A stretch of 15,960 bases of DNA from a virus. Lineage: Duplodnaviria > Heunggongvirae > Uroviricota > Caudoviricetes. Under the pieces are notes generated by a model. It did not search any database. It saw only the letters and a program-made list of their open reading frames with translations, and was not told where the DNA came from. The position numbers and the translations under genes were made by a program. Below are positions 1 through 14,217 of the stretch, in pieces; position 1 is the first letter of the stretch; each line of letters starts with the position of its first letter. The stretch is taken from IMG/VR virus record IMGVR_UViG_2802429240_000004, positions 1-15,960 of that record. The stretch is one strand, 5' to 3'.

Positions 1-754
1 TCAGTGAGATTTTTACGCACGACGGCGCATACATGACGGAGTAAAAACTTTTAACGTAGGTTCCGGAATCCAGATACAGCTCGGTCATTCCGCCGCTGTT
101 TTTCTGCGTCTGTTTCTGCCCTAACTGGACAGCACCGATCGTCATAAACAATTCACCACGGCGACCGAGATTCGTGTACGTATTCACATCCTCGTTAATG
201 CGCCCCATGAATGAGAACGGTCGATCAACCGAACAGATAAAACTGTTCATTGCCTTGCGTTTCACCCACGAAGCATGGCCGCCATTGTCACCAAGAAAAT
301 CCCCGCCCTGCGACATAGCGATGGAAAGCGCAGGTATTGATTCGTAGTACGCCAGCATTTCAGAAAGGATCGCATCCAGTTTTCTTATCGGAAAATAGGC
401 CTGGTCATAGTTGCGATCAACCCGAAACTGGAACTCGTGATAATCATCATCGAGCTGAATGAAGTATTTACACCCGACCAGTTTTGCCAGGTCGAAACAG
501 GCATTACGGGCGTAAAAAATTGAGCGGCGGTCACCGAAATTATCGGCTTCGTCAAAACGACTGGCGATATCGGCTTTGGAAAACACCAGCACCTGTTCAC
601 CAAATTCAGCTATGTACTGATGCCGTGTCTTATCTTCATCATCAACAACGATAAAAATTTTCCCGGTATAGCCAGCACGACGCAACGTCCGGTAAGTCAG
701 AACTTTGTCCGGTCGCCCGTGAGTCAGAATAAAGGCGCAAAAATCATCACGCAT
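1..754 (-). CDS. Hypothetical protein, 3'-truncated by the window edge (ATG at 754..752; reading frame runs off position 1)
   Basis: Manual minus-strand translation gives MRDDFCAFILTHGRPDKVLTYRTLRRAGYTGKIFIVVDDEDK...FIQLDDDYHEF... with no in-frame stop inside the window. Its ATG overlaps the stop of the upstream ParB-like gene (ATGCGTGATGA), suggesting translational coupling. The acidic VVDDED and LDDDY motifs are noted but no family is assigned. Confidence 0.5.
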   Translation of the reverse strand, partial: MRDDFCAFILTHGRPDKVLTYRTLRRAGYTGKIFIVVDDEDKTRHQYIAEFGEQVLVFSKADIASRFDEADNFGDRRSIFYARNACFDLAKLVGCKYFIQLDDDYHEFQFRVDRNYDQAYFPIRKLDAILSEMLAYYESIPALSIAMSQGGDFLGDNGGHASWVKRKAMNSFICSVDRPFSFMGRINEDVNTYTNLGRRGELFMTIGAVQLGQKQTQKNSGGMTELYLDSGTYVKSFYSVMYAPSCVKISL

Positions 755-1535
755 ATTCCTCCTCCCCGCCATGCATGATCTCCACCATGCGCTGCGTCAT
801 CCGGACAAATCCATTTTCAATAGCCTGCTGATAATCAATGATCACCAGCGCCGACTCCTCGAAAAGGCACTGAATTTCAGCGGGGGCGTGAGCGTAATAG
901 TCCGCAATTTTGCTGAAATTAAACACCGTGTGACGTTCTGCCGCACACAGGAGGAATTTCTCAATATCAGGATCAAGGGACGCCAAACGTATCCGGTTGA
1001 TCAGCTCCTGAGTTTTCGTATTGTCGTACAGTTCACTGATATCCGGTTTACCGCCCGACGGCTCATAAACAGGCGTATCAATTTTCGTCGTATATGGCTC
1101 CTCCTCATTTACTGTATCTGGCAAAACATCCGTCAACAGTTCATCAATTTCTGTCGGGCTGAAGCCTGTCAGGGAGACATCAAAATCAGCATTGATTAGG
1201 TCCGACAGCTCCATCCGTAACAGATCTTCATCCCAGCCAGCATTCATCGGCAGGCGATTATCTGCCAGGCGGTACGCCTTTTTCTGATCATCCGTCAGAC
1301 CAGACAGAATGATGACCGGAACAGAATCCATTTTGAGCACTTCAGCCGCCATAACGCGACCGTGACCAGCAATAATTTCGCCCTTTTCATCAATCAGCAC
1401 CGGATTAGTCCAGCCGAATTGCTTAATGCTTTCTACCAGTTGTGCCACCTGCTCAGGGCTGTGTGTCCTGGCATTGTGTGCATACGGAGACAGTTCTTGT
1501 AACGGGCGATAGACGATCTTCAATTTCTCGCTCAT
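747..1535 (-). CDS. ParB-like nuclease domain (ParB/sulfiredoxin fold) protein
   Basis: 262-aa ORF with GAGG about 5 nt upstream of the ATG. The N-terminal region VYRPLQELSPYAHNARTH...NPVLIDEKGEIIAGHGRVMAAEVL matches the ParB N-terminal domain pattern (..DGhHRl.A). The C-terminal half is acidic. Confidence 0.7.
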   Translation of the reverse strand: MSEKLKIVYRPLQELSPYAHNARTHSPEQVAQLVESIKQFGWTNPVLIDEKGEIIAGHGRVMAAEVLKMDSVPVIILSGLTDDQKKAYRLADNRLPMNAGWDEDLLRMELSDLINADFDVSLTGFSPTEIDELLTDVLPDTVNEEEPYTTKIDTPVYEPSGGKPDISELYDNTKTQELINRIRLASLDPDIEKFLLCAAERHTVFNFSKIADYYAHAPAEIQCLFEESALVIIDYQQAIENGFVRMTQRMVEIMHGGEEEYA

Positions 1536-1658
1536 ACAGCCTCGCTTTATGAATAAAAAAGCCCGCTATCGGCCAGTGCGCTGGGTGCGCGGCGGGTGCT
1601 GATAACGAGCTTTGACATTATCGCAGCCCCTCACACTGAAGGGCTGCTGTAATGCCTG

Positions 1659-1766
1659 TTACTCACGAATCAAACGAGCATGCTGACCACTCATTTCAAT
1701 GCGTAAGTATTGTGGCTTGCCGTCAATCAACGCGGTGATTAACTTGTCACCTGTAGGTTTCCACAT
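1659..1766 (-). CDS. Small hypothetical protein (35 aa) downstream of the lysis genes
   Basis: ORF MWKPTGDKLITALIDGKPQYLRIEMSGQHARLIRE, found by manual translation (below the ORF-track size cut-off). AGGAG lies 7 nt upstream of the ATG. No family recognised. Confidence 0.35.
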   Translation of the reverse strand: MWKPTGDKLITALIDGKPQYLRIEMSGQHARLIRE

Positions 1767-1939
1767 AATTTTCTCCTGTTTTAATGCCCCTTGCCGCCAG
1801 GCAGTTGATCAAAGTTCATCTTGATTCGGCAAGATTTAGAATGAATAAGATAAAATTGGCACACGCAGCAGAATTTCATGCTTTCCGGACGCTGGCGCAC
1901 CCTTCATTTTTCAGCAAAATATTCTGCTATTACAGGCGA

Positions 1940-2122
1940 TCAGTTCTGCATACACTGCCGAACACCGTCGACAATTTCACAGACCTGAGAAGCTGTATCG
2001 AAAAGCTGGCGCGCCTTATCCAGACTGACGCATCCCACCAGAAAAAAAGGCACCAGTATCGCTACCAGTGCCCATTTCGCCGCCGTTCGCGGCATTCTGT
2101 GTGTCCAGTGTTTTCTGCTCAT
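1940..2122 (-). CDS. Small lipoprotein (60 aa) with signal peptide and lipobox LVGC; lysis-associated or exclusion lipoprotein candidate
   Basis: Internal start of track ORF 1940..2194, placed just after the endolysin stop: MSRKHWTHRMPRTAAKWALVAILVPFFLVGC.... Basic n-region, hydrophobic core and L-V-G-C lipobox. The predicted mature part (about 29 aa, three Cys) is not proline-rich, unlike typical Rz1 o-spanins. Confidence 0.5.
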   Translation of the reverse strand: MSRKHWTHRMPRTAAKWALVAILVPFFLVGCVSLDKARQLFDTASQVCEIVDGVRQCMQN

Positions 2123-2136
2123 AACACACCTGGTTA

Positions 2137-2520
2137 TCAGCGTTTCAACTGAAAGTGAGGCCCGTCTTTCAGTGTTTTCCAGTCCCCGCCCCATTCGATG
2201 GCAGTTCCCAGCTCTGCGGCAGCCTGCTTAAATGCCTGCGCGATTTTCTCGTACAGAGGCCAGTCCCATGACACCTGGCTGCCAACCCAGGCAACAACAT
2301 CCACCGCATCACCGGTCAGGTGGCGGCTGTTCATGGTCTGGCTTTTCCCTTCCGCGACCAGCTGTTTCTGGCGTTCTTTCGTGCGCAGCCCTTCCGTAAT
2401 ACCGAAATCAACCTCCGTCAGCTCCAGCGCACGGCGAACGACAGCAACCAGCTGTGGTTTAACGCCCTCCAGATTCTTTTCGCTGCGACGACTAAATCTG
2501 AATTTACCCGACATATTCAC
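2137..2520 (-). CDS. Endolysin, peptidase M15 family (L-alanyl-D-glutamate peptidase / VanY-like)
   Basis: 127-aa ORF with metal-binding motifs SRHLTGDAVD and EWGGDW...DGPHFQL typical of M15 phage endolysins. No N-terminal transmembrane segment. Its start overlaps the stop of the upstream membrane-protein gene. Confidence 0.85.
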   Translation of the reverse strand: MNMSGKFRFSRRSEKNLEGVKPQLVAVVRRALELTEVDFGITEGLRTKERQKQLVAEGKSQTMNSRHLTGDAVDVVAWVGSQVSWDWPLYEKIAQAFKQAAAELGTAIEWGGDWKTLKDGPHFQLKR

Positions 2521-2792
2521 CTCAACAATGGAAAGATTTTTGTGACGTTCCCGCGTGCGCGTATCACCAGCACGCAGAACAGCAGGTTAAAAAACACTTC
2601 CAGCCAGCCCGTTGCTAACGGGCGACCACACAGATAGCTGAGGGGCGCAAAGGCATACAGCAGCATCAGCAGCCAGGCCAGCCATGACATCAGCGGTTTA
2701 TGTCTGGAATCACGGCGACGATAAAAAAAGAGCGTCAGCACGATAACCGTGCATAACACCACATTCAGCAATCCGGGAAGGTTACTTAACAT
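2517..2792 (-). CDS. Small membrane protein (91 aa, 2-3 predicted TM helices); holin/antiholin-like second lysis membrane protein
   Basis: Internal ATG of track ORF 2517..2846 (MLSNLPGLLNVVLCTVIVLTLFFYRRRDSRHKPLMSWLAWLLMLLYAF...). The start overlaps the upstream gene's stop (AATGTTAAGTAA) and the end overlaps the endolysin start, giving a translationally coupled lysis operon. Confidence 0.55.
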   Translation of the reverse strand: MLSNLPGLLNVVLCTVIVLTLFFYRRRDSRHKPLMSWLAWLLMLLYAFAPLSYLCGRPLATGWLEVFFNLLFCVLVIRARGNVTKIFPLLR

Positions 2793-3174
2793 TGCCGCCT
2801 CCTCCGCCCCGCAGGCGGGAGAACAGACCGGACACCAGTGATGCAATATCCTGCTGGTGGATGAATGACAGAATCTTCACCGACACTACCGCGACAAGCA
2901 CCGCGCACAGCGCATCTGCCGATGTACCGTCATAACCTGTTTTTGCCGCTATCCAGGCTGACAGCACACGCGCTCCCAGCACGCCAACAATGAACGACAC
3001 CAGAAAATGCGCCGCCACACGCCAGGCTGAAAGCTGCTGCGGCATCGTTGCCACAAACAACGCCCCGGCGAACGCACCAAACACAATCCCGAAATCCGTT
3101 CCGGTAAACAGCCCGAATACCGTCGCCCCACCGAGCGCCGCAGCCGTGCCGGAACCGGATAAGGGTTCAGACAT
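2782..3174 (-). CDS. Holin-like membrane protein (130 aa, 3-4 predicted TM helices)
   Basis: First gene after the tandem terminator hairpins, with AGGAG 9 nt upstream of the ATG. Gly/Ala-rich hydrophobic helices (AAALGGATVFGLFTG, FGIVFGAFAGALFVA, FLVSFIVGVLGARVL, LCAVLVAVVSV). Position upstream of the endolysin fits a holin. Confidence 0.6.
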   Translation of the reverse strand: MSEPLSGSGTAAALGGATVFGLFTGTDFGIVFGAFAGALFVATMPQQLSAWRVAAHFLVSFIVGVLGARVLSAWIAAKTGYDGTSADALCAVLVAVVSVKILSFIHQQDIASLVSGLFSRLRGGGGGNVK

Positions 3175-3191
3175 ACTTTTTTCTCCTGTAA

Positions 3192-3215
3192 ATAAAAAAG
3201 GGCCACTAGCGGCCC
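3192..3215 (-). terminator. Intrinsic terminator on the minus strand immediately upstream of the holin gene (tR'-like)
   Basis: GGGCC-actagc-GGCCC hairpin (3200-3215) followed on the minus strand by TTTTTTAT (plus 3192-3199). A second hairpin AAAGGCA-cctgcaga-TGCCTTT lies at 3234-3255. Confidence 0.5.
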
Positions 3216-3438
3216 GTAAAAAAACACCCCATCAAAGGCACCTGCAGATGCCTTTTGTGTGGTGTTATTTGATGTGCGCTGGGCGTGGCGCAGATATGAA
3301 AAAGGCCCGCCGTAGCGAGCCTCAGATTAAAGTGCGTGGGTAATTGCTCTCGTATTCATAGCGCTGTATTCACCACATACCCGGATTTTTGATATTGTTA
3401 AATCGCCAAAAGTAACAATGTCTCAAATGAGGTAAGAA

Positions 3439-3591
3439 ATGGGTCAGAATAACAAACCATTAGATGAAAATGACAAATCCAAGTCAGCTCCAAAGCCCAA
3501 ATCAACAGAGGAACCAAAGAAGGATCCTTTTTCCGTAGAGAGATTGGTCGTTGGTGATTCCTGGGGAGGTATCAGAAGAAAAAGTAAATAA
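3439..3591 (+). CDS. Small hydrophilic hypothetical protein (50 aa), convergent with the membrane-protein moron
   Basis: ORF MGQNNKPLDENDKSKSAPKPKSTEEPKKDPFSVERLVVGDSWGGIRRKSK found by manual translation. GAGGT lies 5 nt upstream of the ATG. AT-rich context; its 3' end overlaps the 3' end of the minus-strand gene by 20 nt. Confidence 0.3.
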   Translation: MGQNNKPLDENDKSKSAPKPKSTEEPKKDPFSVERLVVGDSWGGIRRKSK

Positions 3592-4141
3592 CAACAGAAA
3601 CCATTAATGAATAAACGGGGGCAAGGATAGCTGATATCCTTGCCTTCTCGAGTCCTTCTCTCAGTCTTTTATTTTCCTGCAATAATTCGTTTGCAGTTCT
3701 GCACAAAGCCATCAATCTGTACCTTCTCAATATGGACAAACGGCTGTCTTTCCCCGAAAAACCTCGCTCTTTAAACCTGGCGTAATCCATCGCAGTAATG
3801 CCCTTAATTGCCGGAGTGTACAGAATATCTGGCGACGCATGAATAATGGCACGCTTATGCACTTTCAGCACATTAACAACAAGGTACACAGCACAAATGG
3901 ACCAGTAAAAGACAAAAACAGCCAGTCCAGCGCCCAAAAAATCCAGATGAGTTTTTTGCGTTAATAGTAAAAATGATGAACCGATGCCAACTATCAGAAT
4001 GCTTAATAATTTATAGCCATTTTCCTTGTTGATGCTGTTTGAGCAATGGATTTCCCGAATGCACTCTTCTCCCTGTTTTTCAAGAAAATCAAGAATGTCA
4101 TCATCCGCATCAAGAAAATAGTCGCCGGGTAGATTTTTCAT
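3572..4141 (-). CDS. Membrane protein moron (189 aa; acidic N-terminal domain, two central TM helices, basic cytoplasmic domain, C-terminal TM helix)
   Basis: Track ORF 3572..4156 trimmed to the ATG preceded by GAAGGA (MKNLPGDYFLDADDDILDFLEKQGEEC...). Hydrophobic segments LLSILIVGIGSSFLLL, LGAGLAVFVFYWSICAVYLVVNVL and ISAILAPVYSLMVSVVIYFFF. Visibly AT-rich relative to flanking phage genes. Sits between the Q-like gene and the lysis cassette. Confidence 0.6.
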   Translation of the reverse strand: MKNLPGDYFLDADDDILDFLEKQGEECIREIHCSNSINKENGYKLLSILIVGIGSSFLLLTQKTHLDFLGAGLAVFVFYWSICAVYLVVNVLKVHKRAIIHASPDILYTPAIKGITAMDYARFKERGFSGKDSRLSILRRYRLMALCRTANELLQENKRLREGLEKARISAILAPVYSLMVSVVIYFFF

Positions 4142-4213
4142 TCCTTCACCAACCACGTAATCTGTAATACGCTCAATTTTACCTGAACGCCTGACGATGA
4201 AACACCATGTTCA

Positions 4214-4243
4214 CCAGAAACAACAAAACCCGCTCGATGGCGG
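4214..4243 (-). terminator. Terminator-like hairpin downstream of the Q-like gene (minus strand)
   Basis: CCCGC-tcgatg-GCGGG stem-loop (4228-4243) followed on the minus strand by TTTTGTTGTTT. Lies about 100 nt past the Q-like stop, where lambdoid phages place pR' and tR'. Confidence 0.4.
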
Positions 4244-4343
4244 GTTCTATTAAAGTTCAATTGCGCTTGGTTCGCCTCGCGATACAGCTTTGCGAAGCAT
4301 AGCTGAATTGAAGCAGTTTATTGGCAAAAATGCAATAACTTTT

Positions 4344-4886
4344 TTATTGGCTTTCTCCACATAACGCTAATTTCATTGGTATATACAGAATGTGTTCAGC
4401 AACACCCAACCATGCGTCAATGCGATTTCTGCAAGTTTTCAAGCTCCAGCCAGGGCGATACTTATTTAACTGTTGTGCCATTTTCAGCTTACTCATCCCC
4501 CGCCCTTCATATCTTTGTCGGAGGATAAAAATCAATCCAGGATGCTCTGCCATCACTTCACTAATTACCCGGTCAATACATAACGCCTCGGCATCAGTGC
4601 AATGGGACAGCCAGCTTTTTTGCTTACTGTCGATCATCTCACGCAAAAATGCTTCCAGCTCTGGCTTCTCTATTCCCGCTTTTTTCATTCTGCGCAGAGC
4701 TTCATTGATGGCTGTTTTCGTCAATTTTTTGGATGCCAGCAACTGGTTGAACATATTCCCCGTCTTACCGCCACCAATATACGACCAGCGCCCCCACATG
4801 CGCAGTTTTCCCTGAATCCAGACACTTTCCAGCGTGGTGAGACGAAGGTGTTCCCCGCTTTTGCCTGTATTTGTTGGGTAAATCAT
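4344..4886 (-). CDS. Putative late-gene antiterminator Q-like protein (180 aa)
   Basis: Internal ATG of track ORF 4344..5006, overlapping the upstream gene's stop (TTATGA). Positioned as the last gene before the late-promoter/lysis region. Contains an MWGRWS motif resembling the RWGxW motif I recall in Q82/QuuD-type antiterminators. Assignment is by position plus a weak motif only. Confidence 0.5.
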   Translation of the reverse strand: MIYPTNTGKSGEHLRLTTLESVWIQGKLRMWGRWSYIGGGKTGNMFNQLLASKKLTKTAINEALRRMKKAGIEKPELEAFLREMIDSKQKSWLSHCTDAEALCIDRVISEVMAEHPGLIFILRQRYEGRGMSKLKMAQQLNKYRPGWSLKTCRNRIDAWLGVAEHILYIPMKLALCGESQ

Positions 4887-5173
4887 AAATAACCTTCCTT
4901 TCTCCAGATTTCTTGTGTGCGAAAAACACCTTCTGCATGCATCAGGCGTAATTCTTCTTTGGTGTAATCGCTGGTTTTTACCCGCCCGTCGATTAAATCG
5001 TGGCACGAGCTACAGGCAATCGCTGCCTGCATATCGTGTGGCTTTATCGCTGTTCCGCACGTTCCCGCCAGTCGGTAATGCGCCAGCACAGACGTTTCCG
5101 GATCGTGATTGCAGTAGCCAGGAATTCTGACGGTGCACATCTGGCCTTTAGCCGCTTTACGTAAATCCACCAT
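4883..5173 (-). CDS. nin-region Cys-rich protein (DUF1364 / YbcO-like)
   Basis: 96-aa ORF MVDLRKAAKGQMCTVRIPGYCNHDPETSVLAHYRLAGTCGT...ACSSCHDLID, with the conserved Cys/His pattern I recall for DLP12 YbcO-family proteins. Start overlaps the upstream stop (TAATG). Confidence 0.7.
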   Translation of the reverse strand: MVDLRKAAKGQMCTVRIPGYCNHDPETSVLAHYRLAGTCGTAIKPHDMQAAIACSSCHDLIDGRVKTSDYTKEELRLMHAEGVFRTQEIWRKEGYL

Positions 5174-5772
5174 TACGCAAACTCCAGTAGTTGTGCAGCC
5201 ACATTTTCGACTTCCTCCGGAGAGGAGAATTTACGGAACAGAATCCAGTTCCACAGTACGTTGAGTACTGCTTTATAAACCTGCTGAAACTCGGTTTCGT
5301 CCATATTCGCAAAAGCGATGGATTTCGCCCTGCGCCCACGGCTACCATCCGGATAAAAATGCTCGGTGTAAAATCCGGCCTGAATGGTTACCCACTCGCG
5401 GAAAGCCTCAAACGACTTTAGCAATGCCGTATCCTGGGTTCTGCGTGTCGCAACTGTATTCAGATATTGCTCTGCGGCTTCGCTCAGAGCTGGCGTATGT
5501 TCCCGGCCTACTGATTCACACAGGTAATCAACGAATCCTGAAACCAGTTTTCGTTCGCGAGGAGTGATCGCCCCACCGACCGGAGTCCAGTAATCGAATC
5601 CGAGTTGCAGAAGTTTGAAAAAACGCTTATGGAATGCGTAGTTACGTACACGCTTAAAGTCTGCGTGTACCCACTCACCTATTTTGATTTGATGCAAAAA
5701 ATCGCAACTCTCCGGCGTCGCCGGGAGAAGTAATCCGGAAGAGGTTTGTTTGACCAGTTGTATATGTGCCAT
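5173..5772 (-). CDS. nin-region protein (DUF1367-like)
   Basis: 199-aa ORF with GGAGAAA about 5 nt upstream of the ATG. Family assignment is from memory of lambdoid nin-region proteins and is not verified. Confidence 0.6.
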   Translation of the reverse strand: MAHIQLVKQTSSGLLLPATPESCDFLHQIKIGEWVHADFKRVRNYAFHKRFFKLLQLGFDYWTPVGGAITPRERKLVSGFVDYLCESVGREHTPALSEAAEQYLNTVATRRTQDTALLKSFEAFREWVTIQAGFYTEHFYPDGSRGRRAKSIAFANMDETEFQQVYKAVLNVLWNWILFRKFSSPEEVENVAAQLLEFA

Positions 5773-5838
5773 CGGCTTTCTCCGGTGGCACGGTGTTACT
5801 CAGCAGGAGTTCAATCCTGCTCAAGATTGTAGATGAGT

Positions 5839-6099
5839 TTATTCTTCAGCAAAAGCAGAAAAACCAGCCTTAAAACCAATCTCTTTCAAAACCCCTAATG
5901 ATGTGACAAATTCGTCCTCACGCAAAATAAAACCGTCCGTCAGAAGTCCATTACAAAAATAAAATAACGCAGCTCCACTCTTCCTTTGTTGAGACTGTAA
6001 ACATTTAATACGGCAGTGACTGACAATAGCGCCATTCTCAACGCGCACAGTATAGAGGCCATTTTCACTAAAAATTTCACGCAATTCTTCGATTTTCAT
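5839..6099 (-). CDS. Hypothetical protein (86 aa) between the hok locus and the nin genes
   Basis: ORF MKIEELREIFSENGLYTVRVENGAIVSHCRIKCLQ... with GGAAGGA 9 nt upstream of the ATG (the track starts 3 nt earlier at a TTG). Occupies the position of rem next to hokD in the E. coli Qin prophage; no sequence-level claim is made. Confidence 0.5.
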   Translation of the reverse strand: MKIEELREIFSENGLYTVRVENGAIVSHCRIKCLQSQQRKSGAALFYFCNGLLTDGFILREDEFVTSLGVLKEIGFKAGFSAFAEE

Positions 6100-6220
6100 C
6101 AACAGAATCCTTCCAGATAAATAGCACTCCCCTGTTCGGGGTCCATCCCTCTTCTCCCTGCGCGCTACTTAAGTATTTTTGATTCTATTCCGGCACTATC
6201 CAAAACTTCAAACGCGTTGA

Positions 6221-6250
6221 AAATAAAAACAAAAACCCGCCGAAGCGGGT
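6221..6250 (-). terminator. Intrinsic terminator of the hok mRNA (minus strand)
   Basis: ACCCGC-cgaa-GCGGGT hairpin (6235-6250) followed on the minus strand by TTTTGTTTTTATTT. Preceded by the imperfect palindrome GGCGGGAGATTTCTCCCCCGCC (6291-6312), typical of folded hok mRNA 3' ends. Confidence 0.5.
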
Positions 6251-6319
6251 TAAGTGTGGGTGCATTGAGGATGCCTGACACATCAGAGGTGGCGGGAGAT
6301 TTCTCCCCCGCCAGGTCTC

Positions 6320-6472
6320 TTACTCCTCAGGTTCGTAAGCTGTGAAGACAGCGACCTCCGTCTGGCCGGTTCGGATTCGTACCTCGCAGAGGTCTTTCCT
6401 CGTTACCAGTGCCGTCACTATGACGGTTAAACAGATGACGCTCAGGGCGATTAACATCGTCTTTTGCTGCAT
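6320..6472 (-). CDS. hok: Hok/Gef-family type I toxin (small membrane peptide)
   Basis: Manual translation gives MQQKTMLIALSVICLTVIVTALVTRKDLCEVRIRTGQTEVAVFTAYEPEE (below the ORF-track size cut-off). Single TM helix and conserved Cys; nearly identical to my recollection of E. coli HokD/RelF. An in-frame GTG lies one codon upstream. Followed by a strong terminator. Confidence 0.8.
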   Translation of the reverse strand: MQQKTMLIALSVICLTVIVTALVTRKDLCEVRIRTGQTEVAVFTAYEPEE

Positions 6473-6620
6473 CACAGCCTACTTACCCTTACCTTTCGTT
6501 CAAGCGGTAAGGTCACTTTTTCTGTTGTGTGCTAACCAATAAACCTCTTTTATCTGCATTAAAATTCGCTATCATGTCATCCTCAACCTGTTAATAGCCT
6601 ATTATGGACTTTAGTAAACA

Positions 6621-8450
6621 ATGAGCACTTCCGCATACAAGAGCAAAATTCGAACACTCCAGTGCGCGTTAAAAAACGGTGAATTTGAACCATTCATACA
6701 ACATATCCGTTTTCCATACTTTAAAAATATAGAGCAGAATGCAAGGATCGATTTTCAGTTCCCTATAACGGCTTTAGTAGGAAAAAATGGAACTAATAAA
6801 AGTTCTGTTATCAAAGCGCTATTTGGTTGCCCACATGGTAAAAATATAACTCGTTATTGGTTCACAACTGAAACAGATGAGTTTCCTGACCTAAAACTTG
6901 CTGATGGCAGTTCTCTTAAGCCTAGATATATATATGGATATAAAAATGCTGATGGCCGTTTAGTTGAAATACTCCAAGCGCGTATCAATGCTACCAAGAA
7001 AACAATCGATTATTGGGAAACAAGTCGACCATCTGTTGGTGATAACATGGAGAGCATTTCGGATGATCTGGGTGCTAATAGTAATGCAACCAGATGGAAA
7101 AAAATCAAGAAGGGATTGGTTTTCCTAGATTTCAGATCGGAAATAAGTGCATTTGATAGATGTATGTATCACTCTGATCCTAAATTAAGAAAGAAGAAGA
7201 GTGGTGTATTAATTACAAAGCAAGACTATATCAGAAGCAAATCTAAATATATAAAAAAAGCTTTTGATGAAAAGCTAAGTAATTTAAGACTTTGGGGGAC
7301 GGAAACCATTGTTAAAAATATAACCTTGGCGCCAGAACTAGTTGAGCACGTCTCATTTATATTAGGGAAAAAATATAAAGTCATTAAATTTCTTGAGCAT
7401 CGGTTATTTGGAACCAAAGGAGGAACCGTTTTACTTTCAACTGATAAGTTGAACTATACAGAAGCTTTTGCTGGAAGTGGTGAATTTGCAATAGTTTCAC
7501 TAATACTCAATATTTATTCGGCCAAACCTAATTCATTAATTCTTCTTGACGAACCAGAAGTTTCACTTCACCCTGGTGCACAGAAAAGGATGATGGATGT
7601 TCTGTACTCTATTGTTGAGCAGAAAAAACATCAAGTGGTAATATCAACCCATTCTCCTGTTATTGTGAACACTCTTCCCAAAGATGCCATTAAATTATTT
7701 GTTTTTGATGAAGAAAGTGAAACAGCTAAAATAGTTCAAAATATAGCACCGGATGAAGCTTTTATAGAGCTAGGGCATGATATTAACAAGAAAACAATAA
7801 TTGTAGAAGATAAATTAGCTAAAGCAATTATAGATAAAGCGATTAAAAATGATGAAAGATTAAGCTTATCATTTAGTGTAAGTTATATACCAGGTGGTTC
7901 GGAGACCATTTTAAGCAAGCATCTTCCCAGTTACGCTGTGGTAGAACGCAATGATATTTTGTTTTTACTTGATGGTGATAAGAACAAAAAAATAAAACCA
8001 GTAAGAATTAGTGAAATTGCTGATGCTGATTTAGTTAATACAATGTGCAAATATTATGGTTGCGAGTTAATTATCAATGCCAGTGGTAGTAATGGCAAAA
8101 AAAATGAACAAGAATCTAATAGACTCAAAAGGCAAGTGCTTGAGTATGCATTCAATAAAGTGCAGTATTTACCATTTGATACTCCCGAACAATTACTCAT
8201 TGAAAAGGCAATTACGCCAAGTGAAAAAGAAATAATTGATTCACAGACCTGGAGTTCTGATGATCCAGAACTGTATAAGAATCAAATAAGATTATTAGCG
8301 CAACACCTGTATGATAAAGAAGAAGTAAATGCAGAGGAAATTTTTTGCCTCCAACAAATAATGACCGCAAGACTTAAAAATGAATTGCCTGAATTTATAA
8401 AAATAAGAAAAATAATTACTCAGGCTCTTGACCGTGGTATCATTAGGTAG
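6621..8450 (+). CDS. OLD-family ABC-type ATPase with C-terminal TOPRIM-like nuclease domain (609 aa)
   Basis: Walker A GKNGTNKSS, signature-like AGSGEF, Walker B SLILLDEPEVSLHP, H-loop VISTHSP. The C-terminal region has a TOPRIM-like glutamate (TIIVEDKLAKAII) and DxD (LFLLDGDKN). Strongly AT-rich; opposite strand to the surrounding phage genes. Confidence 0.75.
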   Translation: MSTSAYKSKIRTLQCALKNGEFEPFIQHIRFPYFKNIEQNARIDFQFPITALVGKNGTNKSSVIKALFGCPHGKNITRYWFTTETDEFPDLKLADGSSLKPRYIYGYKNADGRLVEILQARINATKKTIDYWETSRPSVGDNMESISDDLGANSNATRWKKIKKGLVFLDFRSEISAFDRCMYHSDPKLRKKKSGVLITKQDYIRSKSKYIKKAFDEKLSNLRLWGTETIVKNITLAPELVEHVSFILGKKYKVIKFLEHRLFGTKGGTVLLSTDKLNYTEAFAGSGEFAIVSLILNIYSAKPNSLILLDEPEVSLHPGAQKRMMDVLYSIVEQKKHQVVISTHSPVIVNTLPKDAIKLFVFDEESETAKIVQNIAPDEAFIELGHDINKKTIIVEDKLAKAIIDKAIKNDERLSLSFSVSYIPGGSETILSKHLPSYAVVERNDILFLLDGDKNKKIKPVRISEIADADLVNTMCKYYGCELIINASGSNGKKNEQESNRLKRQVLEYAFNKVQYLPFDTPEQLLIEKAITPSEKEIIDSQTWSSDDPELYKNQIRLLAQHLYDKEEVNAEEIFCLQQIMTARLKNELPEFIKIRKIITQALDRGIIR

Positions 8451-8473
8451 TGATTCTGGATGCAGAGGGAAAA

Positions 8474-9514
8474 ATGAAAAAAATCAAAGTGTTTGACTTC
8501 TTTTCCGGTTGTGGTGGAACCAGCCAAGGTTTCCATCAAGCTGGAATGGATATTGTTTTTGGCCTCGATTTCGACGTTGATGCAGCCAGTTCATTTCGTG
8601 CAAATTTCCCGCAGGCTGCTTTTATTAACTCGGACATTAGGTTAATCGACAACAATGCCATAAACAAGTTAGTAAAAAAACATCGTAATGATTACATTCT
8701 TTTTTCAGGATGTGCGCCTTGTCAACCGTACTCTAAGCAAAACTCAAATAAAAAAAATGATGATCCACGATTAGATCTATTAAAGGAATTCAGTCGTTTT
8801 GTAGAGCATTATATGCCTGATTTTATTTTTGTTGAAAACGTGCCTGGAATGCAAAAGTTTAACAAAAATGAAGGAACATTCATGATGTTTTTAGAAATGC
8901 TTTCATCAAAGGGATATAGTGTAGATTATAAAGTAATGCCAGCTGCGTGGTACGGTGTACCACAGACGCGAGAAAGATTAGTGCTCATTGCATCCAAGGA
9001 TTTTTATGTCGCATTGCCTTCTCCTACACATGGGGTTGGAAATACTCCCTATTCAACAGTAAAGGACTGGATCGCTAATTTACCGAAGATAGAGGCAGGA
9101 GAAAAGCATAATAGTATTCCTGATCATGAAGCTGCACGCTTATCAGAGCTTAATTTACGTAGAATAAAATGCACTCCTGAAGGTGGAAGTCGAGAATTTT
9201 GGCCAGATGAATTGATTTTAGAATGCCATCGTAACCATAAAGGGCATACAGACGTATATGGACGTTTGAGTTGGGACAAACCAGCCAGCGGACTAACAAC
9301 TCGTTGTATTAGCTATTCAAATGGACGTTTTGGACATCCAACACAAAATCGAGCAATATCGGTTCGTGAAGCAGCGTGTCTACAAACATTTCCTTTGGAT
9401 TATAAATTTATTGGTTCTTTGCAATCTCGGGCTCGTCAAATAGGAAATGCGGTCCCTCCGAAGATGTCTGAAACGATTGGAAAACATTTGCTTAATATAA
9501 TCAAAGCCTCCTAG
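8474..9514 (+). CDS. DNA (cytosine-5)-methyltransferase
   Basis: Motif I FDFFSGCGG, motif IV catalytic GCAPCQPYS, motif VI ENV, motif VIII QTRERLVLIA, motif X IGNAVPP; variable region between VIII and IX. GAGGGA precedes the ATG at 8474; alternatively starts at the GTG at 8450 overlapping the upstream TAG. Operon with the ATPase gene. Confidence 0.85.
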   Translation: MKKIKVFDFFSGCGGTSQGFHQAGMDIVFGLDFDVDAASSFRANFPQAAFINSDIRLIDNNAINKLVKKHRNDYILFSGCAPCQPYSKQNSNKKNDDPRLDLLKEFSRFVEHYMPDFIFVENVPGMQKFNKNEGTFMMFLEMLSSKGYSVDYKVMPAAWYGVPQTRERLVLIASKDFYVALPSPTHGVGNTPYSTVKDWIANLPKIEAGEKHNSIPDHEAARLSELNLRRIKCTPEGGSREFWPDELILECHRNHKGHTDVYGRLSWDKPASGLTTRCISYSNGRFGHPTQNRAISVREAACLQTFPLDYKFIGSLQSRARQIGNAVPPKMSETIGKHLLNIIKAS

Positions 9515-9530
9515 GAGGCTTTATTTTATT
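9501..9530 (+). terminator. Perfect 20-bp palindrome plus T-tract terminating the ATPase-methyltransferase operon (probably bidirectional)
   Basis: AAAGCCTCCTAGGAGGCTTT is identical to its reverse complement and contains the methyltransferase TAG stop; it is followed by TTATTTTATT. Confidence 0.55.
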
Positions 9531-9545
9531 GTTATCCCCTAGTAT

Positions 9546-9977
9546 TTAATCGTGCTCACCAGACAACCTCCTGAAATTACTCTGGTAAAATGCCAGTACA
9601 CGCTGCATAACTTCGCTTTTCCGGCACTCGCGACAGATTATGTTCTGACGCCTGTCGTGGCGGCGTATTTCTCCGTCTGGTAATGACCAGATAAGGTCAG
9701 GATCAACCACAACCGGTTTCTTCGTCTTTGCCCTTGATAGTTTTTTGCGGGCGTTTTGCCAGTCTTTACGCGCCTGCTCAGACGGGAATAATCCGTAGCC
9801 AGAATTGTAAACATCACCACTGGCGACCAGTTCTCTGGCGAGAGTGCTTATGTAATACCTTGATGCACCGGTTTTAGCCTCCAGAGCCCGTAACGTCTCG
9901 CGACCGCTCAGACGTACAAGTTCAACAACCTGCCCTTTAATTTTTTCCCGCTCTTCTGGTGTAAATACTTTTGCCAT
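9546..9977 (-). CDS. Hypothetical phage protein (143 aa)
   Basis: ATG with GGAGG 5 nt upstream (the track ORF starts 15 nt earlier at a TTG). Contains ICRECRK near the C-terminus. No family assigned. Confidence 0.55.
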   Translation of the reverse strand: MAKVFTPEEREKIKGQVVELVRLSGRETLRALEAKTGASRYYISTLARELVASGDVYNSGYGLFPSEQARKDWQNARKKLSRAKTKKPVVVDPDLIWSLPDGEIRRHDRRQNIICRECRKSEVMQRVLAFYQSNFRRLSGEHD

Positions 9978-9992
9978 AGGTGCCTCCGGCAA

Positions 9993-10754
9993 TCACTTTT
10001 CCGATGCAACATGGCGGGAAGAATCAGTAATCTGTCGTACAATATCCCTGTGCTTGTTCAGCTCCCGCAGCGCGGAGCAGACACGCTCCCACTTCTGGAC
10101 ATGATTTTTCGCCCGACGCAGTTCGCGGTTTGCCAGATGCAGCGATGGTAAAATCAGGTCATCGGCTCGCGTTGCAGTAAACGATGGCAACGACTGCACA
10201 ATGTCCGCCACAGTTTCTGTTTTAATTTCTTCCTGTATTGCAGCTTCCGGCGCTGGTAACGCAACATCTGCTGGCTGAGGAAAGGCTTTACCATCATTTC
10301 CCGTTACCGATGCGGCTTTCGGCTCTGCTGGTAAATTATCGTCCGGCATGCAGTAACGAAATTTACCGTTCTGATTTACACGAATCAGACGCCCTTTGCT
10401 GATTGCCATTGCCAGCGTTGAAGCTACTTTGCGTGATGTGGTACCGAACAATGTAGCCAACTCATCAGCCGTTTGTGGTCCGCGTTGTTCAATCGTCGCG
10501 GTTAAATCGCTCTCTGAGATTTTCGCTACTGTCGCCGTGGTGGTTTCTTCCGGCTGTTCTTCTGGCGCTGGCTGTTCCTGCTGAACGTTGTTATCAGCCA
10601 CACGCCAGGTGTATACGCTTTTATCAACGAAGCCAGCCTTTTTCAGTTCCCACAGCTCGTTCAGAACTTCTTCACGACTGATATCAAGTCGCGCAGCCAG
10701 TTCTACCGACGTGGCTTTTCCCATTGCTTTCAGTGCATCAAAAACGGTTTCCAT
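9993..10754 (-). CDS. Hypothetical phage protein (253 aa) with N-terminal winged-helix-like segment and acidic Pro/Glu-rich linker
   Basis: Internal ATG of track ORF 9993..10820 with GGGAGGA 8 nt upstream. [43 protein letters not shown] resembles a wHTH; followed by low-complexity [16 protein letters not shown]. Confidence 0.55.
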
Positions 10755-10788
10755 TAAAATTTCCTCCCGGTAAAAATTACTTCTCAAC

Positions 10789-11454
10789 TCAAACAAACCC
10801 AGCCGCTTTCCGGCGTTCATATTCCTGTTTCAGCAACTCAATTGGAGTTGGCCCCGACGGGCGTTTTGGTGCTACCAGTTGCCGCCGGACGGGCGGAACG
10901 CTGAAGCCGTCACCAACATGCTTTGCCCATTTCGCTAGTTGCCGTTCTGCAAGTCGTTTTAACTCCCCTTCGGTCATCTGACGCTCAATCCCTTTTGCCC
11001 GCATCTCGAGGCAAATGTGATACAGCACGGGCTGAGACCACGGGTATTTATCGCTCCCGTCGTATCGCCAGGACTCGTTGCGCCAGCGGCGGTACTCCTC
11101 CATCACGGCATCCACAGTCAAACCAAACGGATTTGCCCCACTTTCCGAAATCAACGCCACAAACTCAGCCAGGTCAGGAGGCCATGTTTCACCCGCCCGA
11201 CAACGCTCCATGCACTGGCGGCAGACCTGCCGGATTTGCTGCTCAGTCATCGCGCCAATCTGTGCAATCCAGAGCTTCGAAGGTGCGGCCCCGTTCTTCT
11301 GGGTCCAGCGGTTCGAATAAACCTCCCCCATGAGTTCCCACAGCTTCCACGCCGTTTCCGTCGCTGATAAATCCGTTTTCACGTTCCCACTGCTCACGTG
11401 CTGCCCGAATTTCCTGAACTGCCCGTGATGCGGTGCCACCTGGCGTTGCTGCAT
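10789..11454 (-). CDS. Replication protein P-like (helicase loader)
   Basis: Alignable by eye to lambda P: [40 protein letters not shown] versus lambda YPWKSNAHYWLVTNLYQNMRANALTDAELRRKAADELVHM; also [12 protein letters not shown] versus TTMEQVNAGMRVARRQ. AAGGGGGTGA lies upstream of the ATG at 11454. Confidence 0.7.
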
Positions 11455-12367
11455 GGTTCACCCCCTTGCTGACTGGTTTAACCTGCGCCCTGACGTGATT
11501 TACGTGACGGGCGAATTTCTGCTCCCACTGAACCTGCGTGAACACTTTGCCCTCCGCTGCCCAGTAGTCCCGGAAGGCGGCAAGTTCAGCTGGTGTAAAT
11601 TCCGGCTCAGGAAGAGCCACGCCCCACAGCGCAGCCCGTCGTCGAAAATCCGGCGACGGATGCCAGCCATCGGTCATCGGAAATTTCCCGATGGGTTCGC
11701 TCAGGCCTTCCAGGTAATCAGGTTCCGCTGTCTGCAACGGCACGCCATTTGCCTCACTGGCCGGAGCACTCTCGCGCACGCGCGCGTTATGTGTGGGGTT
11801 TATATATCTGTTATCTGTTATCTGGATACCGCATGACAAAGCGTTAGCCTTATCCTTAGGCTTATCCTCAGGCAAAGGGATTGCCTTATCGAATGCCATC
11901 CCCAAAGCCTCAGAAACCCCGTAGGACGCGGCTCTCAGCGATTCCCTGGCCTCCCATTTGAGAGGGCAATCAGGAATTAAAGCGAATGCCTTTGCCCAGG
12001 ATTTAATGACATTTATCGAGTTTGGCGGATTGTGTTTCGCAGCATTCGGGAGCCAAAAAACTCTGGCTTTGATATCTGCTTTCACCATGCCAAGATTCAT
12101 GGCTTCGCCTAAGGCTAAGTCAAAGGCTTCGATATCCCACCCCAACTCTTCAGCCATTGCTGCCCGCCCGGCTTTAAACAACCCAGGAATAATCCCGGTA
12201 AATGGACTGGTCAGCAGATAAATAAACAAACTCTGTCCACTTGGAGGCAGAGGAGATAACGCCCTAAATTTGGGATCATCCCATATCGTTATTTTTACCT
12301 TGCGATAAGGCTCATTGTTTGCCTTAGTTTTTGGCATGGGATTTGGCATGTTTTTAGCCTTAACCAT
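11243..12367 (-). CDS. Replication initiator O-like protein with DnaT-like C-terminal domain
   Basis: Internal ATG (GAGG 6 nt upstream) of track ORF 11243..12421. The C-terminal segment [61 protein letters not shown] matches E. coli DnaT ([29 protein letters not shown]...[20 protein letters not shown]). Its last ~70 codons overlap the P-like gene in another frame. Confidence 0.7.
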   Translation of the reverse strand: [374 protein letters not shown]

Positions 12368-12446
12368 AATTGCCTCATCTGGTGTCGAACCTTCCTCCGG
12401 ATATAATCTGTGATTCCCCAATCAACAGAACCAAAGGAGGTTCGAC

Positions 12447-12902
12447 ATGTCTTTAATGGCTGTTTGCCAAAAAATTAAAAATCACATGCGCACTGTGTAC
12501 AAAATTAACCAGCACGACCACGACATGGTTAACCTGGTAACATGCAGGGCTATAGTTCTCACCCGCTTCCATCTACTTCTTACAAATCACTCACGAGATT
12601 CTCTCCTGAGTCCCAGTAACTATGATTCGCTGGCGAGATTGCTATACCAGGCAAGTGAAAAACGTATTACTGATCCCTTATCTGTTTCTCCTGTCCTTGC
12701 TCTTCACATTCTGGAAGACGCTCTCTATGACCCCCATCAGGAATGCGACTATCAATTTCTTGAAGCTGAGAAATCAATGAGAGAATGGTTCGTTGAATAT
12801 CACGAACGGCAGCAAAAGTTATCCTCAAAGTATTCAGAACTTCCGCAACTTCGCTGGAGTGACCTTCCGAACGAATTATTTGCTCTGACCCCAGAAAATT
12901 AA
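12447..12902 (+). CDS. Hypothetical protein (151 aa), AT-rich, antisense to the early-right operon; conflicts with 12667..13080
   Basis: Strong RBS AAAGGAGG 6 nt before the ATG and a perfect TATAAT hexamer about 40 nt upstream (12402-12407). Globular-looking sequence. Overlaps the minus-strand ORF by 236 nt, so at most one of the two is likely real over that stretch. Confidence 0.4.
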   Translation: MSLMAVCQKIKNHMRTVYKINQHDHDMVNLVTCRAIVLTRFHLLLTNHSRDSLLSPSNYDSLARLLYQASEKRITDPLSVSPVLALHILEDALYDPHQECDYQFLEAEKSMREWFVEYHERQQKLSSKYSELPQLRWSDLPNELFALTPEN

Positions 12903-13080
12903 TTCTTGGGGATAAATCGTCCATAACTGAGCGCAGGCTAAGTTCTGCGCTCTGAAGCTTCCGAACCGAAGTTTCTGTACCCCAACCCGCAATTTCTGCA
13001 TTTTTTGCAAGTTTCAGGATCCAGTCTCGTAGTTCGCCGGGAGTAAGATTTCCAGCATTGATAAACGGTTTGATTTTCAT
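12667..13080 (-). CDS. Hypothetical protein (137 aa) following the YdaT-like gene; conflicts with 12447..12902
   Basis: ATG 20 nt after the YdaT-like stop with a weak RBS. The N-terminal 59 codons lie in unique sequence; the remainder overlaps the plus-strand ORF. Confidence 0.3.
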   Translation of the reverse strand: MKIKPFINAGNLTPGELRDWILKLAKNAEIAGWGTETSVRKLQSAELSLRSVMDDLSPRINFLGSEQIIRSEGHSSEVAEVLNTLRITFAAVRDIQRTILSLISQLQEIDSRIPDGGHRERLPECEEQGQEKQIRDQ

Positions 13081-13099
13081 TGTTAGTTACCCTATTCAC

Positions 13100-13522
13100 T
13101 TAATGAACAACAGCAGAATCGTCGGACGACCCACCACCGCTGAAATGCGCTTTCCGGTAAACGGCTTGGACTGCATCATCATGCGCATCAATTGCCGTAC
13201 TCAACGCTTCCTGCGCCGCCAGTAATGCACGGCGTTCCAGGGTATCGAAGATGCTGAATCGGTGGCGCAGCTCGCGCGGAAGGATTGCCAGAATTGCAGG
13301 GATCAGTTTCTGAATTTTTTCCCTTTGCGCTTCCGTTTCACCTTTCAACCAGCGGTGATAGATATTCTGCTGATTGTTCCAGTCCTTGCCTGGTACCAGG
13401 GGTAATTCGCCGCCCCCCTGGCGCAGATATTCTTCAGTAATTGCGTTAGCGACCCACGCCTGCCCTTTTTCGGCTGCCAGGGCTAACAGCACTGATTCGA
13501 TGTGCTCATGCCTGATTTTCAT
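13100..13522 (-). CDS. YdaT-like protein (CII-like regulator family of Rac-type prophages)
   Basis: 140-aa ORF directly after the Cro-like gene (17-nt overlap), AAGGTGA upstream. Begins MKIRHEHI and ends AVVH, matching my recollection of E. coli YdaT; family call by memory and position. Confidence 0.6.
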   Translation of the reverse strand: MKIRHEHIESVLLALAAEKGQAWVANAITEEYLRQGGGELPLVPGKDWNNQQNIYHRWLKGETEAQREKIQKLIPAILAILPRELRHRFSIFDTLERRALLAAQEALSTAIDAHDDAVQAVYRKAHFSGGGSSDDSAVVH

Positions 13523-13733
13523 GAATCACCTTCCCTGCTCGCTTTGCCTTACGATATTCGTCATAAACGTTGGGGTCGTACTGAAGCTCCCCGCCGGATG
13601 CCTCCTGCAGGCGCATCGCGCGGCCTTCAGGAACCAGTTCCCCCCATGCAGCAATGCTTGCCAGCCTCACCCCTGCAGCATTCGCGAGCTTCGTTTTGCT
13701 GCCAAAAAAAGCTATAGCATCGGTTTTCAACAT
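13506..13733 (-). CDS. Cro-like HTH regulator
   Basis: 75-aa ORF divergent from the repressor, AAGGAG 6 nt upstream. DAIAFFGSKTKLANAAGVRLASIAAWGELVPEGRAMRLQEASGGELQYDPNVY parallels lambda Cro ([26 protein letters not shown]...INADGSVYAEEVKPF). Confidence 0.7.
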   Translation of the reverse strand: MLKTDAIAFFGSKTKLANAAGVRLASIAAWGELVPEGRAMRLQEASGGELQYDPNVYDEYRKAKRAGKVIHENQA

Positions 13734-13809
13734 ATCGAACTCCTTAGATTTTCCTAAGTAAACTAGATTGTAGAGAAACCTAAGTCAAGAAAAATTAGAA
13801 TTACCTAAT
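13734..13809. promoter_or_regulatory. OR-like divergent promoter/operator region between the Cro-like and repressor genes
   Basis: Contains CTTAG-attttc-CTAAG (13744-13759) and further CCTAAG/CCTAAT copies (13779-13784, 13804-13809). The repressor ATG has no Shine-Dalgarno and a TAGAAT hexamer sits about 9 nt upstream, suggesting a leaderless transcript as for lambda cI from pRM. Confidence 0.55.
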
Positions 13810-14217
13810 ATGAAAAACGAAACCTTCGGTGCCCGCCTCTTACACAGGCGTAAAAAATTAAAACTGTCCCAGGCCGCATTAGGTAAGCTGGTCAAAGTGG
13901 CTCACGTAACAATTTCTCAGTGGGAAAGGGATGAAACACAGCCTGCGGGGAAGAGATTATTCGCGCTGAGTCAGGCACTTCAGTGCTCACCGACCTGGCT
14001 TCTTTTTGGGGATGAAGATAAGCAACCAGGCGAACCGATCCCGGCGAACCAACCAACCAATCTGACAGAAGAGCAAAAAGAGTTACTTCAACTGTTCGAC
14101 GCACTGCCTGAATCAGAGCAAAAAGCTCAATTGTCAGAGATGCGTGCCAGAGTTGAGAATTTCAACAAACTTTTTGAAGAACTACTCAAAGCTCGCAAAA
14201 GAAGCACAAATAAATAA
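13810..14217 (+). CDS. Prophage repressor, HTH_XRE family without peptidase domain (DicA/RacR-like)
   Basis: 135-aa ORF; N-terminal LSQAALGKLVKVAHVTISQWERDETQPAGKRLFALSQALQCSPTWLLFG is a canonical XRE/cI-type HTH. Flanked on both sides by CTTAG-type operator repeats. Confidence 0.8.
   Translation: MKNETFGARLLHRRKKLKLSQAALGKLVKVAHVTISQWERDETQPAGKRLFALSQALQCSPTWLLFGDEDKQPGEPIPANQPTNLTEEQKELLQLFDALPESEQKAQLSEMRARVENFNKLFEELLKARKRSTNK

Follow-up and report, generated by a model that had tools for sequence, protein, structure and literature searches.

The closest described counterpart of the region reported here is the late cassette of phage 21, which is said, in the account of Yin, Kaelber and Ebright from 2019, to be Q-dependent and to comprise the antiterminator Q21, the late promoter pR'21, a Q-binding element (QBE), a sigma-dependent pause element (SDPE) and the terminator tR'. 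Lambda follows the same logic and the same order, from Q through a constitutive late promoter, a -10-like pause element where the transcript starts and a terminator to the lysis genes; its 6S RNA is 194 nucleotides (nt) long, and we know of no cargo between tR' and S in that phage. Polymerase that has been modified by Q ignores downstream terminators, and Q-lambda (PF03589) is not a structural homologue of the Q21-type proteins (PMC9388147). Here we analyse the region between a Q-like gene and the first lysis gene in positions 1 to 15,960 of the viral record IMGVR_UViG_2802429240_000004, a stretch of 15,960 nt that we call the window throughout. We hold it to be quite probable that this region is a Q21-type antitermination cassette with a slot for cargo genes and an array of terminators that keeps the holin silent until Q acts. 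By homology with the phage 21 cassette it is a known kind of system, an ordinary lambdoid late switch: five of the seven features that define a Q21 cassette are present at the sequence level (a Q homologue, the position of the predicted promoter, the candidate pause element, the terminator and the late genes). The Q gene, the leader, the holin and the endolysin lie on the minus strand throughout, and features below are on that strand unless stated otherwise.

The Q homologue and the module behind it

An earlier reading of the window, to which we refer as the original prediction, called the gene at 4886..4344 (180 amino acids) Q-like, and its product is borne out as a homologue of the Q21 family. 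It matches Pfam DUF1133 (E = 7e-102), PF06530 (27.8 bits at a cut-off of 26) and PHROG 753, annotated 'Q-like' (E = 4.6e-76); Yin et al. 2022 (PMC9388147) identify PF06530 with the Q21 family, and one study assigns DUF1133 to Q on the basis of HHpred (PMC8136144). When 21 homologues, each from a different locus, were aligned (alignment A3), the resulting profile matched the Q21 entries 6p18/6jnx of the PDB with E = 8e-6, and hhalign against phage 21 Q returned a probability of 94% (E = 1.4e-7, 131 columns). The two proteins have about 27% identity and share an N-terminal W-x2-G-x-L-x2-WG-x-W motif and a C-terminal helix-turn-helix-like region; in the window protein the loop that is long in the Q21 helix-turn-[loop]-helix, HT[loop]H, has about 12 residues fewer. 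Judged from these matches, the gene is a divergent member or remote homologue of the Q21 antiterminator family; because its best Pfam family is DUF1133, still labelled a "domain of unknown function", we place the protein on a sister branch of Q21. Inside the 5' end of the gene and antisense to it, TTGCCTGTATTTGT at 4861..4874 (plus strand) fits the CII-site pattern TTGYN6TTGY, and phage 21 carries paQ within its Q gene; a lambda-style paQ or CII site in the Q gene was nevertheless rejected, the count of four such patterns in the window being the chance expectation (4.4).

Behind the Q stop codon lies a compact module. It consists of a candidate -35 hexamer TTGCAT (4335..4330), starting 8 nt past the stop, a 17-nt spacer (TTTTGCCAATAAACTGC), an extended -10 element formed by TG (4315..4314), a C and TTCAAT (4312..4307), the 5 nt TCAGC and finally the -10-like hexamer TATGCT (4301..4296), a candidate sigma-dependent pause element. 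The pair TTGCAT-N17-TTCAAT had been picked out by eye in the original prediction and is present as described. For comparison we collected loci with the Q protein as query (25 from contigs representing one genome per species and 80 from viral contigs) and, in a second retrieval, with the holin as query, giving a total of 104 loci with a detected holin and 56 distinct leaders; the phage 21 genome OL657228, in which the regulatory elements are annotated with literature references, served as calibration. Among 45 distinct after-Q modules, with Q identities of 51-100%, there is one layout: TTGnnn, 17 nt, TGnTTnAAT, 5 nt, TAnGCT. TTG stands 17 nt upstream of TTnAAT, and TAnGCT 5 nt after the -10, in 45/45 of these motif-bearing modules, which were chosen by a search pattern that itself imposed TTG and TAnGCT. 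At positions that the pattern did not impose, counted over the 30 unique cores to which the 45 modules reduce, conservation is nearly as complete, with G at -14 in 30/30, T at -15 in 28/30, and positions 2, 4 and 5 of TTnAAT invariant (30/30).

This conserved TTGnnn-17-TGnTTnAAT plus TAnGCT arrangement, together with the homology of the upstream gene to phage 21 Q, favours the placement of pR'/qut within 4250-4340 by the original prediction. TTGCAT-17-TG-n-TTCAAT is the predicted sigma-70-type late promoter of a phage-21-type cassette, and by analogy with phage 21 we infer a start site at about A4300. TATGCT is its predicted sigma-dependent pause element, the counterpart of TAAGCT in phage 21; we equate the invariant TAnGCT with that element because the annotated phage 21 SDPE is TAAGCTG. 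The correspondence extends to details: the phage 21 -35, TTGACA, starts 7 nt after the Q stop as against 8 nt here, the -10 elements are AACACT and TTCAAT, TAAGCTG directly follows the start site in phage 21 where the window has TATGCT, and in both an RNA hairpin, in phage 21 the terminator hairpin, starts at the GCU of the pause hexamer.

Other Q classes differ in how this module is built. In a class with a 192-residue Q the stop codon of the gene falls inside the -10 hexamer, and the module of a third class (184 residues, for example in E. coli U90) is of another kind, TTGACT-18-TATATT, and comes with a terminator of its own. We also observed 'orphan' copies of the class-A late promoter, pause element and tR' directly upstream of the membrane-protein cassette described below and far from a cognate Q, namely in L001 (E. 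coli U90, about 2975..3175), L038, L046 and L079; in E. coli U90 the orphan copy comes after the class-C Q module and an ORF6N gene. Because of these copies, some prophages appear to hold two tandem late-promoter cassettes of different specificity.

In phage 21 the QBE occupies the spacer between the -35 and -10 elements as a repeat, ATTGAGCA-AATGAGCA, and the window has TTTTGCCA-ATAAACTG (4329..4314) in the same position, the first spacer 8-mer starting 28 nt before the pause hexamer in both. We infer that this spacer is the Q-binding site, a reading that draws on variation among relatives as well as on position. Among E. coli variants of Q the N-terminal 130 residues or so are near-identical, and the C-terminal 50 or so fall into discrete types; by analogy this C-terminal part would correspond to the DNA-binding part of Q21. 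Across classes the C-terminal helix motif and the first spacer 8-mer co-vary: TCRRR goes with (A/G)nTGAGC(A/C), equal to the half-site AATGAGCA of the phage 21 QBE (the helix of phage 21 Q itself reads TCRRE), TCE(S/T/N)R with nGTTGCGC, STCEKR with TnTTACG(C/T), and KTCRNR, the motif of the window, with TTTT(G/A)CCA. The contrast between classes can be seen by setting TTTTGCCA of the window against AGTGAGCA. These C-terminal variants and their matching spacers, one of which matches the solved Q21-QBE pair, offer material for a DNA-recognition code of Q21-type proteins.

Terminators, cargo slot and holin leader

The original prediction also described a CCCGC/GCGGG hairpin with a U-tract after the Q-like stop, and we can confirm it as tR'. 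This intrinsic terminator (4252..4218), found by terminator scan and by folding, has a CCCGC(C)/GCGGG stem at 4244..4229 that can be extended to 4252..4221 and precedes UUUUGUUGUUU (4228..4218), and its folding free energy (dG) of -17.4 kcal/mol lies far below that of shuffled sequences (z = -6.1). It is located about 75 nt past TATGCT. A terminator-like hairpin ending 57-106 nt after TAnGCT is found in 45/45 modules and is built from 31 different stem sequences, compared with a terminator in 9% of 110-nt windows drawn at random from these loci and in 3% of shuffles. By analogy with the described cassettes, a short late-promoter RNA of about 80 nt is predicted to end at tR'. In the fold of 4301..4216 its leader begins, inside the pause element, with a predicted 5' stem-loop GCUUCGC...GCGAGGC (4298..4274), and the block TCGCAAAGCTGTATCGCGAGGCGA is near-invariant in class-A modules, as are roughly the first 30 nt of the predicted transcript.

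The late genes follow on the same strand as tR' and downstream of it. The first is a holin (PF16931, 3174..2782, ATG at 3174, Shine-Dalgarno sequence AGGAG at 3187..3183), and a second holin (PF05449, 2792..2517) and an M15 endolysin (PF13539, 2514..2137) come after it, all three identified by Pfam. From the Q-like stop to the holin ATG there are 1169 nt. In alignments with four E. coli relatives the sequences are near-identical between the Q stop and the far end of tR', diverge totally after it, and become alike again about 100-150 nt before the holin ATG. The intervening slot holds tRNA-Thr/Gly, a helix-turn-helix gene, an ORF6N gene or TerB plus DUF3927 in the relatives, and in two loci it is empty: L061 has the Q stop, promoter, tR', t3, a G+C-rich hairpin, h1, t2 and holin within 266 nt, and L020 has tR' and one terminator in 156 nt. 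Against L061, where tR' abuts t3, the cargo of the window is therefore an insertion of about 890 nt (about 4214..3324) between tR' and t3, with CTG at both joints. This defines the point of insertion for accessory genes, between tR' and the holin-proximal terminators.

The window cargo comprises a gene for a membrane protein of 189 amino acids (4141..3572, PHROG 11870) and a convergent gene on the plus strand for a lysine-rich protein of 50 amino acids (3439..3591, PHROG 14506) with a good ribosome-binding site. The 3' ends of the two genes overlap by 20 nt, and the pair is kept together in variants that are 53-61% identical. The original prediction had put this moron under Q control; it does lie inside the late transcription unit, but Q control is probably only part of its regulation, as the hexamer TAAAAT (4181..4176), about 35 nt upstream of the membrane-protein ATG, suggests a promoter of its own. 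We say probably because TAAAAT is kept in all three diverged versions of the cassette; it stands without a good -35. At the 3' end of the cargo we found no cassette-specific terminator, and the cassette there abuts the backbone terminator t3.

Immediately before the holin the original prediction had reported two hairpins, at 3234-3255 and 3200-3215. Both are real, but the region holds three terminators, of which t3 had been missed, and 3234-3255 is only the core of h1. The first in the direction of transcription, t3 (GGCUCGC-UACG-GCGGGCC followed by U5, 3323..3299, hairpin 3323..3302), was found by the terminator scan and has a dG of -16.7 kcal/mol. Next come a G+C-rich hairpin that lacks a T-run, GCGC(C)...(G)GCGC (3292..3275, from folding), likewise missing from the original prediction, and then h1, a long imperfect stem (3266..3223, core 3255..3234) with U7 at 3224..3218 and a dG of -21.8 kcal/mol; because the full imperfect stem reaches the U7 tract, h1 has the shape of a complete intrinsic terminator. 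The last, t2 (GGGCC-GCUAGU-GGCCC plus U6; hairpin 3215..3200, followed by UUUUUUAU from 3199, the whole 3215..3194), was found by scan, has a dG of -10.8 kcal/mol and ends 25 nt before the holin ATG, its U-tract running into the ribosome-binding site. Folding of both hairpin regions, which the original prediction had proposed as a check, gave, besides the value for tR', z-scores against shuffles of -4.9 for t3, -4.3 for h1 and -2.2 for t2. The 158-nt holin leader as a whole folds at -57.8 kcal/mol (z = -4.3), a value that 0/200 shuffles match, and the terminator scan of 2700..5000 gave 8 sites where shuffles gave 2.3 +/- 1.7.

In the comparative data these terminators are kept whatever the cargo, are present where there is none, and are replaced by unrelated terminators in distant relatives. 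Among the Q-anchored loci 19/20 distinct leaders have a terminator ending 20-70 nt before the holin ATG. t3 is present in L003 and L061 and, in L081, stands directly before the holin ribosome-binding site; the G+C-rich hairpin recurs in L002, L003 and L061 with its stem kept and its loop changed (ACGCCC, GCGCCC, ACATCT). Across 39 aligned homologous leaders, with 20 pairs of h1 and t2 counted together, 93.3% of cells are paired as against 43-54% when the partners are slid. Changes on both sides affect four pairs (11 cells), all in h1, and 0/500 shuffles reach 11 cells; in L181 the outer h1 stem is perfect (CACCACAC/GUGUGGUG), and in L140 the internal loop of h1 is closed by changes on both strands. 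In t2, 97.9% of cells are paired, with variation only in the loop or to G-U wobbles.

Two further observations concern the holin leader. In the distant relatives L018-L023 the last 50 nt or so before the holin ATG contain a conserved CCCCTC-N26-GAGGGGG, absent from the window, whose 5' element can pair with the holin Shine-Dalgarno sequence and which may be a translational control element. We also considered h1 as the terminator of a plus-strand antisense RNA over the holin ribosome-binding site, with the T-rich tail UUUUGUGU, and dropped the idea; neither by eye nor by scan was a plus-strand promoter for such an RNA found, and t2 has no T-run on the plus strand.

Alternative readings and a model of the switch

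Several observations weigh against the reading of this region as a Q21-type cassette or against parts of it. As a -10 element TTCAAT is non-consensus, being without the usual A at position 2, and from the -10 to the pause hexamer, start to start, there are 11 bp in the window as against 13 bp in phage 21. The window spacer 8-mers show no evident direct repeat of the phage 21 QBE kind; the helices ATCRNR and RTCCSR both occur with the class-C module, an exception to the co-variation, and the co-variation itself could come in part from physical linkage, helix and spacer being adjacent. The start site, the pausing, Q binding and read-through belong to the model rather than to direct observation. 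A consensus promoter scan of 2700..5000 made no call, including at TTGCAT/TTCAAT; because that scan likewise fails to call the late promoter and the terminator annotated in phage 21 (OL657228), we regard this negative as uninformative. For t2, changes are one-sided only, and it therefore gives no true compensatory evidence. Finally, about 12-14 of the 104 holin loci have an unrelated AT-rich leader without a terminator. The proposal in the original prediction that the holin-proximal terminators form a second Q-dependent barrier is consistent with the comparative data, but such a barrier would be common rather than obligatory, dispensable in some phages. The dozen or so loci with AT-rich leaders, L116, L114, L125 and L158 among them, have holins of 95-98% identity and a different Shine-Dalgarno region.

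The same terminator-free leaders can be cited in favour of a different interpretation of the hairpins, that they are only 3' terminators of morons, or recombination scars at mosaic joints, and no selected barrier to lysis. Morons classically carry their own terminators, the motif TTAATCTG recurs at cargo ends in a way that suggests recombination joints, and t3 and t2 seem interchangeable directly before the ribosome-binding site (L081). But terminators are present at the cargo-free sites L061 and L020, the 100 nt or so before the ATG stay conserved whichever of four unrelated cargos precedes them, terminators with unrelated stems occupy the corresponding position before distant holins (46-50% identity), and the both-side changes in h1 keep or improve its stem, and we accordingly judge this interpretation improbable. 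A more specific role can be imagined for h1. A 'Q-dependent terminator', made of hairpin, spacer and U-tract and stopping only polymerase whose RNA-exit channel is lengthened by the Q nozzle, has been predicted and not yet observed (Yin et al., PMC9388147), and the inner hairpin of h1 (3255..3234) is separated from U7 by about 9-12 nt. If h1 were such an element, it would dampen transcription by Q-modified polymerase and govern how much holin is made and when lysis occurs. We give this very little credence; the outer stem beside the U-tract is kept by compensatory changes, which speaks for h1 as an ordinary terminator.

Other alternatives concern the promoter and its product. TAnGCT could be the true -10 of the late promoter, with no pause element at all and with TTnAAT serving, for example, as part of the Q-binding site. 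At positions 2 and 6 TAnGCT does have the critical A and T that TTCAAT is without, and in many modules TGn directly precedes it. However, no -35-like hexamer lies 16-18 nt upstream of TAnGCT, whereas TTGnnn stands exactly 17 nt before TTnAAT in every motif-bearing module and the TG before TTnAAT is invariant; in the window it is AGC and not TGn that precedes TATGCT, and the annotation of phage 21 treats the identical hexamer, TAAGCT, as a pause element just past the start site. We find this alternative quite improbable. Somewhat less unlikely, and compatible with a Q21-type cassette, is the idea that the main product made in the lysogen is regulatory RNA, with the pR'-tR' RNA of about 80 nt, and possibly the holin leader, acting in trans like StxS of Shiga-toxin (Stx) phages or IsrK of Gifsy-1. 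Short pR'-tR' RNAs are constitutive in lambda, 21, 82 and the Stx phages, and StxS is a functional Hfq-dependent small RNA (PMC7547250); the predicted RNA has a 3' hairpin and a U-rich tail, and its near-invariant start of about 30 nt in class-A modules is able to form a stem-loop. That conserved block can, however, be explained equally well as DNA or RNA elements of the Q-loading site, and no Rfam family reached its gathering threshold across the whole window. An E-value search of 3150..4400 gave sub-threshold matches only, to STnc370 (24.4 bits against a gathering score of 54, E = 1.6, at 4217..4283 on the minus strand), which could be read as weak support for the idea, and to suhB/mmgR (23 bits against 41); we took both as terminator-shaped chance hits, being below the gathering scores. 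The STnc370 match may be no more than a chance likeness of one terminator to another, or it could indicate that STnc370 itself is a prophage pR'-tR' transcript.

We therefore return to the Q21-type cassette, for which we propose the following course of events. In the lysogen the late promoter would fire constitutively, and polymerase would pause at TATGCT and stop at tR', yielding the RNA of about 80 nt. Upon induction Q would be made from the early rightward transcript, bind the spacer TTTTGCCA-ATAAACTG, load onto the paused polymerase and form a nozzle on the RNA-exit channel, such that terminator hairpins could not form; the modified polymerase would then pass tR', the cargo and the three terminators t3, h1 and t2 and continue into the genes for both holins and the endolysin. 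The cargo would be co-transcribed late, and probably from its own promoters too. The array t3-h1-t2 would insulate the holin by halting unmodified polymerases that started at cargo promoters, and the lysis genes would therefore stay silent until Q acts. In the ancestral leader t3, h1 and t2 lie between tR' and the holin, and the window has its cargo inserted between tR' and t3. What this provides is a testable annotation (promoter, pause element, candidate Q-binding site and terminators) for the late switch of a DUF1133-branch Q.

Surroundings and relation to known phages

Upstream of the Q-like gene lie a DUF1367 gene (5772..5173) and a YbcO/DUF1364 gene (5173..4883) whose stop codon overlaps the ATG of the Q-like gene (ATGA). 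Elsewhere the window has genes of a lambdoid early region, among them a lambda-P-like gene, DUF1627, DUF977 and YdaT, and because of this gene content the window is part of a Rac/phiP27-like lambdoid prophage. At 6621..9514, on the plus strand and thus opposite to the surrounding prophage operon, we observed a gene for an AAA_21/AAA_15 (AbiEii/OLD-like) ATPase of 609 amino acids with a C5 cytosine DNA methylase gene immediately after it; the pair looks like a defence or methylation accessory island.

Parts of the Q gene, the leader or the holin are widespread: a query of 1851 nt spanning them found matches in 1561/5426 complete E. coli genomes, of which only one matched over at least 80% of the query. 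The phage record PP818812.1, named 'Actinobacillus phage vB_Apl-pPE4', matches the region with 93% coverage and 94.8% identity, and its coverage, identity and piece structure equal those of the E. coli U90 prophage; its host label looks doubtful to us, and the record appears to be an E. coli lambdoid prophage.

Some features of the cargo deserve mention in their own right. Homologues of the 50-residue protein (MSESNKP... or MSEKNKP...) stand beside diverged membrane-protein genes in L081 and L056, and in E. coli U90 this reading frame was not annotated by PGAP. The stretch upstream of this frame (3389..3419, plus strand), likewise conserved, reads TTGATA-18-TAACAA and includes a perfect inverted repeat of 7 bp (ATTGTTA...TAACAAT). 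Inside the membrane-protein coding region, just downstream of the 50-residue reading frame on the plus strand, a perfect 10-bp hairpin (3644..3620; dG -15.5 kcal/mol on the minus strand and -20.9 kcal/mol on the plus strand) may be the terminator of that frame. PADLOC and NCBIfam searches of the cargo proteins gave no matches, and homologues in phage records are all named "hypothetical" or "putative membrane protein"; the cargo could be a two-gene accessory module, for instance toxin/antitoxin-like or for exclusion.

Set against phage 21, the window also differs in what follows the promoter. The order there is terminator, tRNA-Asn, tRNA-Thr and holin, and here tR', cargo, t3-h1-t2 and holin; the short RNA would be about 80 nt as against about 45 nt in phage 21; and the window has three extra pre-holin terminators, where our scan of phage 21 found none, a scan that missed the annotated phage 21 terminator as well. 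A parallel to the cargo slot is found in the Stx phages, whose late region runs from pR'-tR' with StxS through tRNAs and stx to the lysis genes, and in which the interval from Q to holin is likewise a slot read by Q-modified polymerase, and in which a constitutive short RNA ends at tR' (PMC7547250), as is predicted here. The Stx2e phage phiP27 has the same holin and h1-t2 leader, at 91.8% identity. By contrast, the cargo of Stx phages is a toxin, whereas that of the window is a membrane protein and a small convergent gene, and the window Q belongs to the DUF1133 branch. The cassette also resembles the morons of lambdoid phages, accessory genes that sit between backbone genes and bring a promoter and a terminator of their own: relative to genomes without it (L061, where the site is empty, and other relatives, which carry other cargos) it is a discrete insertion, its slot is filled by unrelated cargos in relatives, and a conserved TAAAAT precedes its gene. 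Our findings leave the current understanding of lambdoid late control unchanged, and what sets this cassette apart from a classic moron is that it consists of two convergent, overlapping genes and ends against a terminator of the phage leader in place of a 3' terminator of its own.

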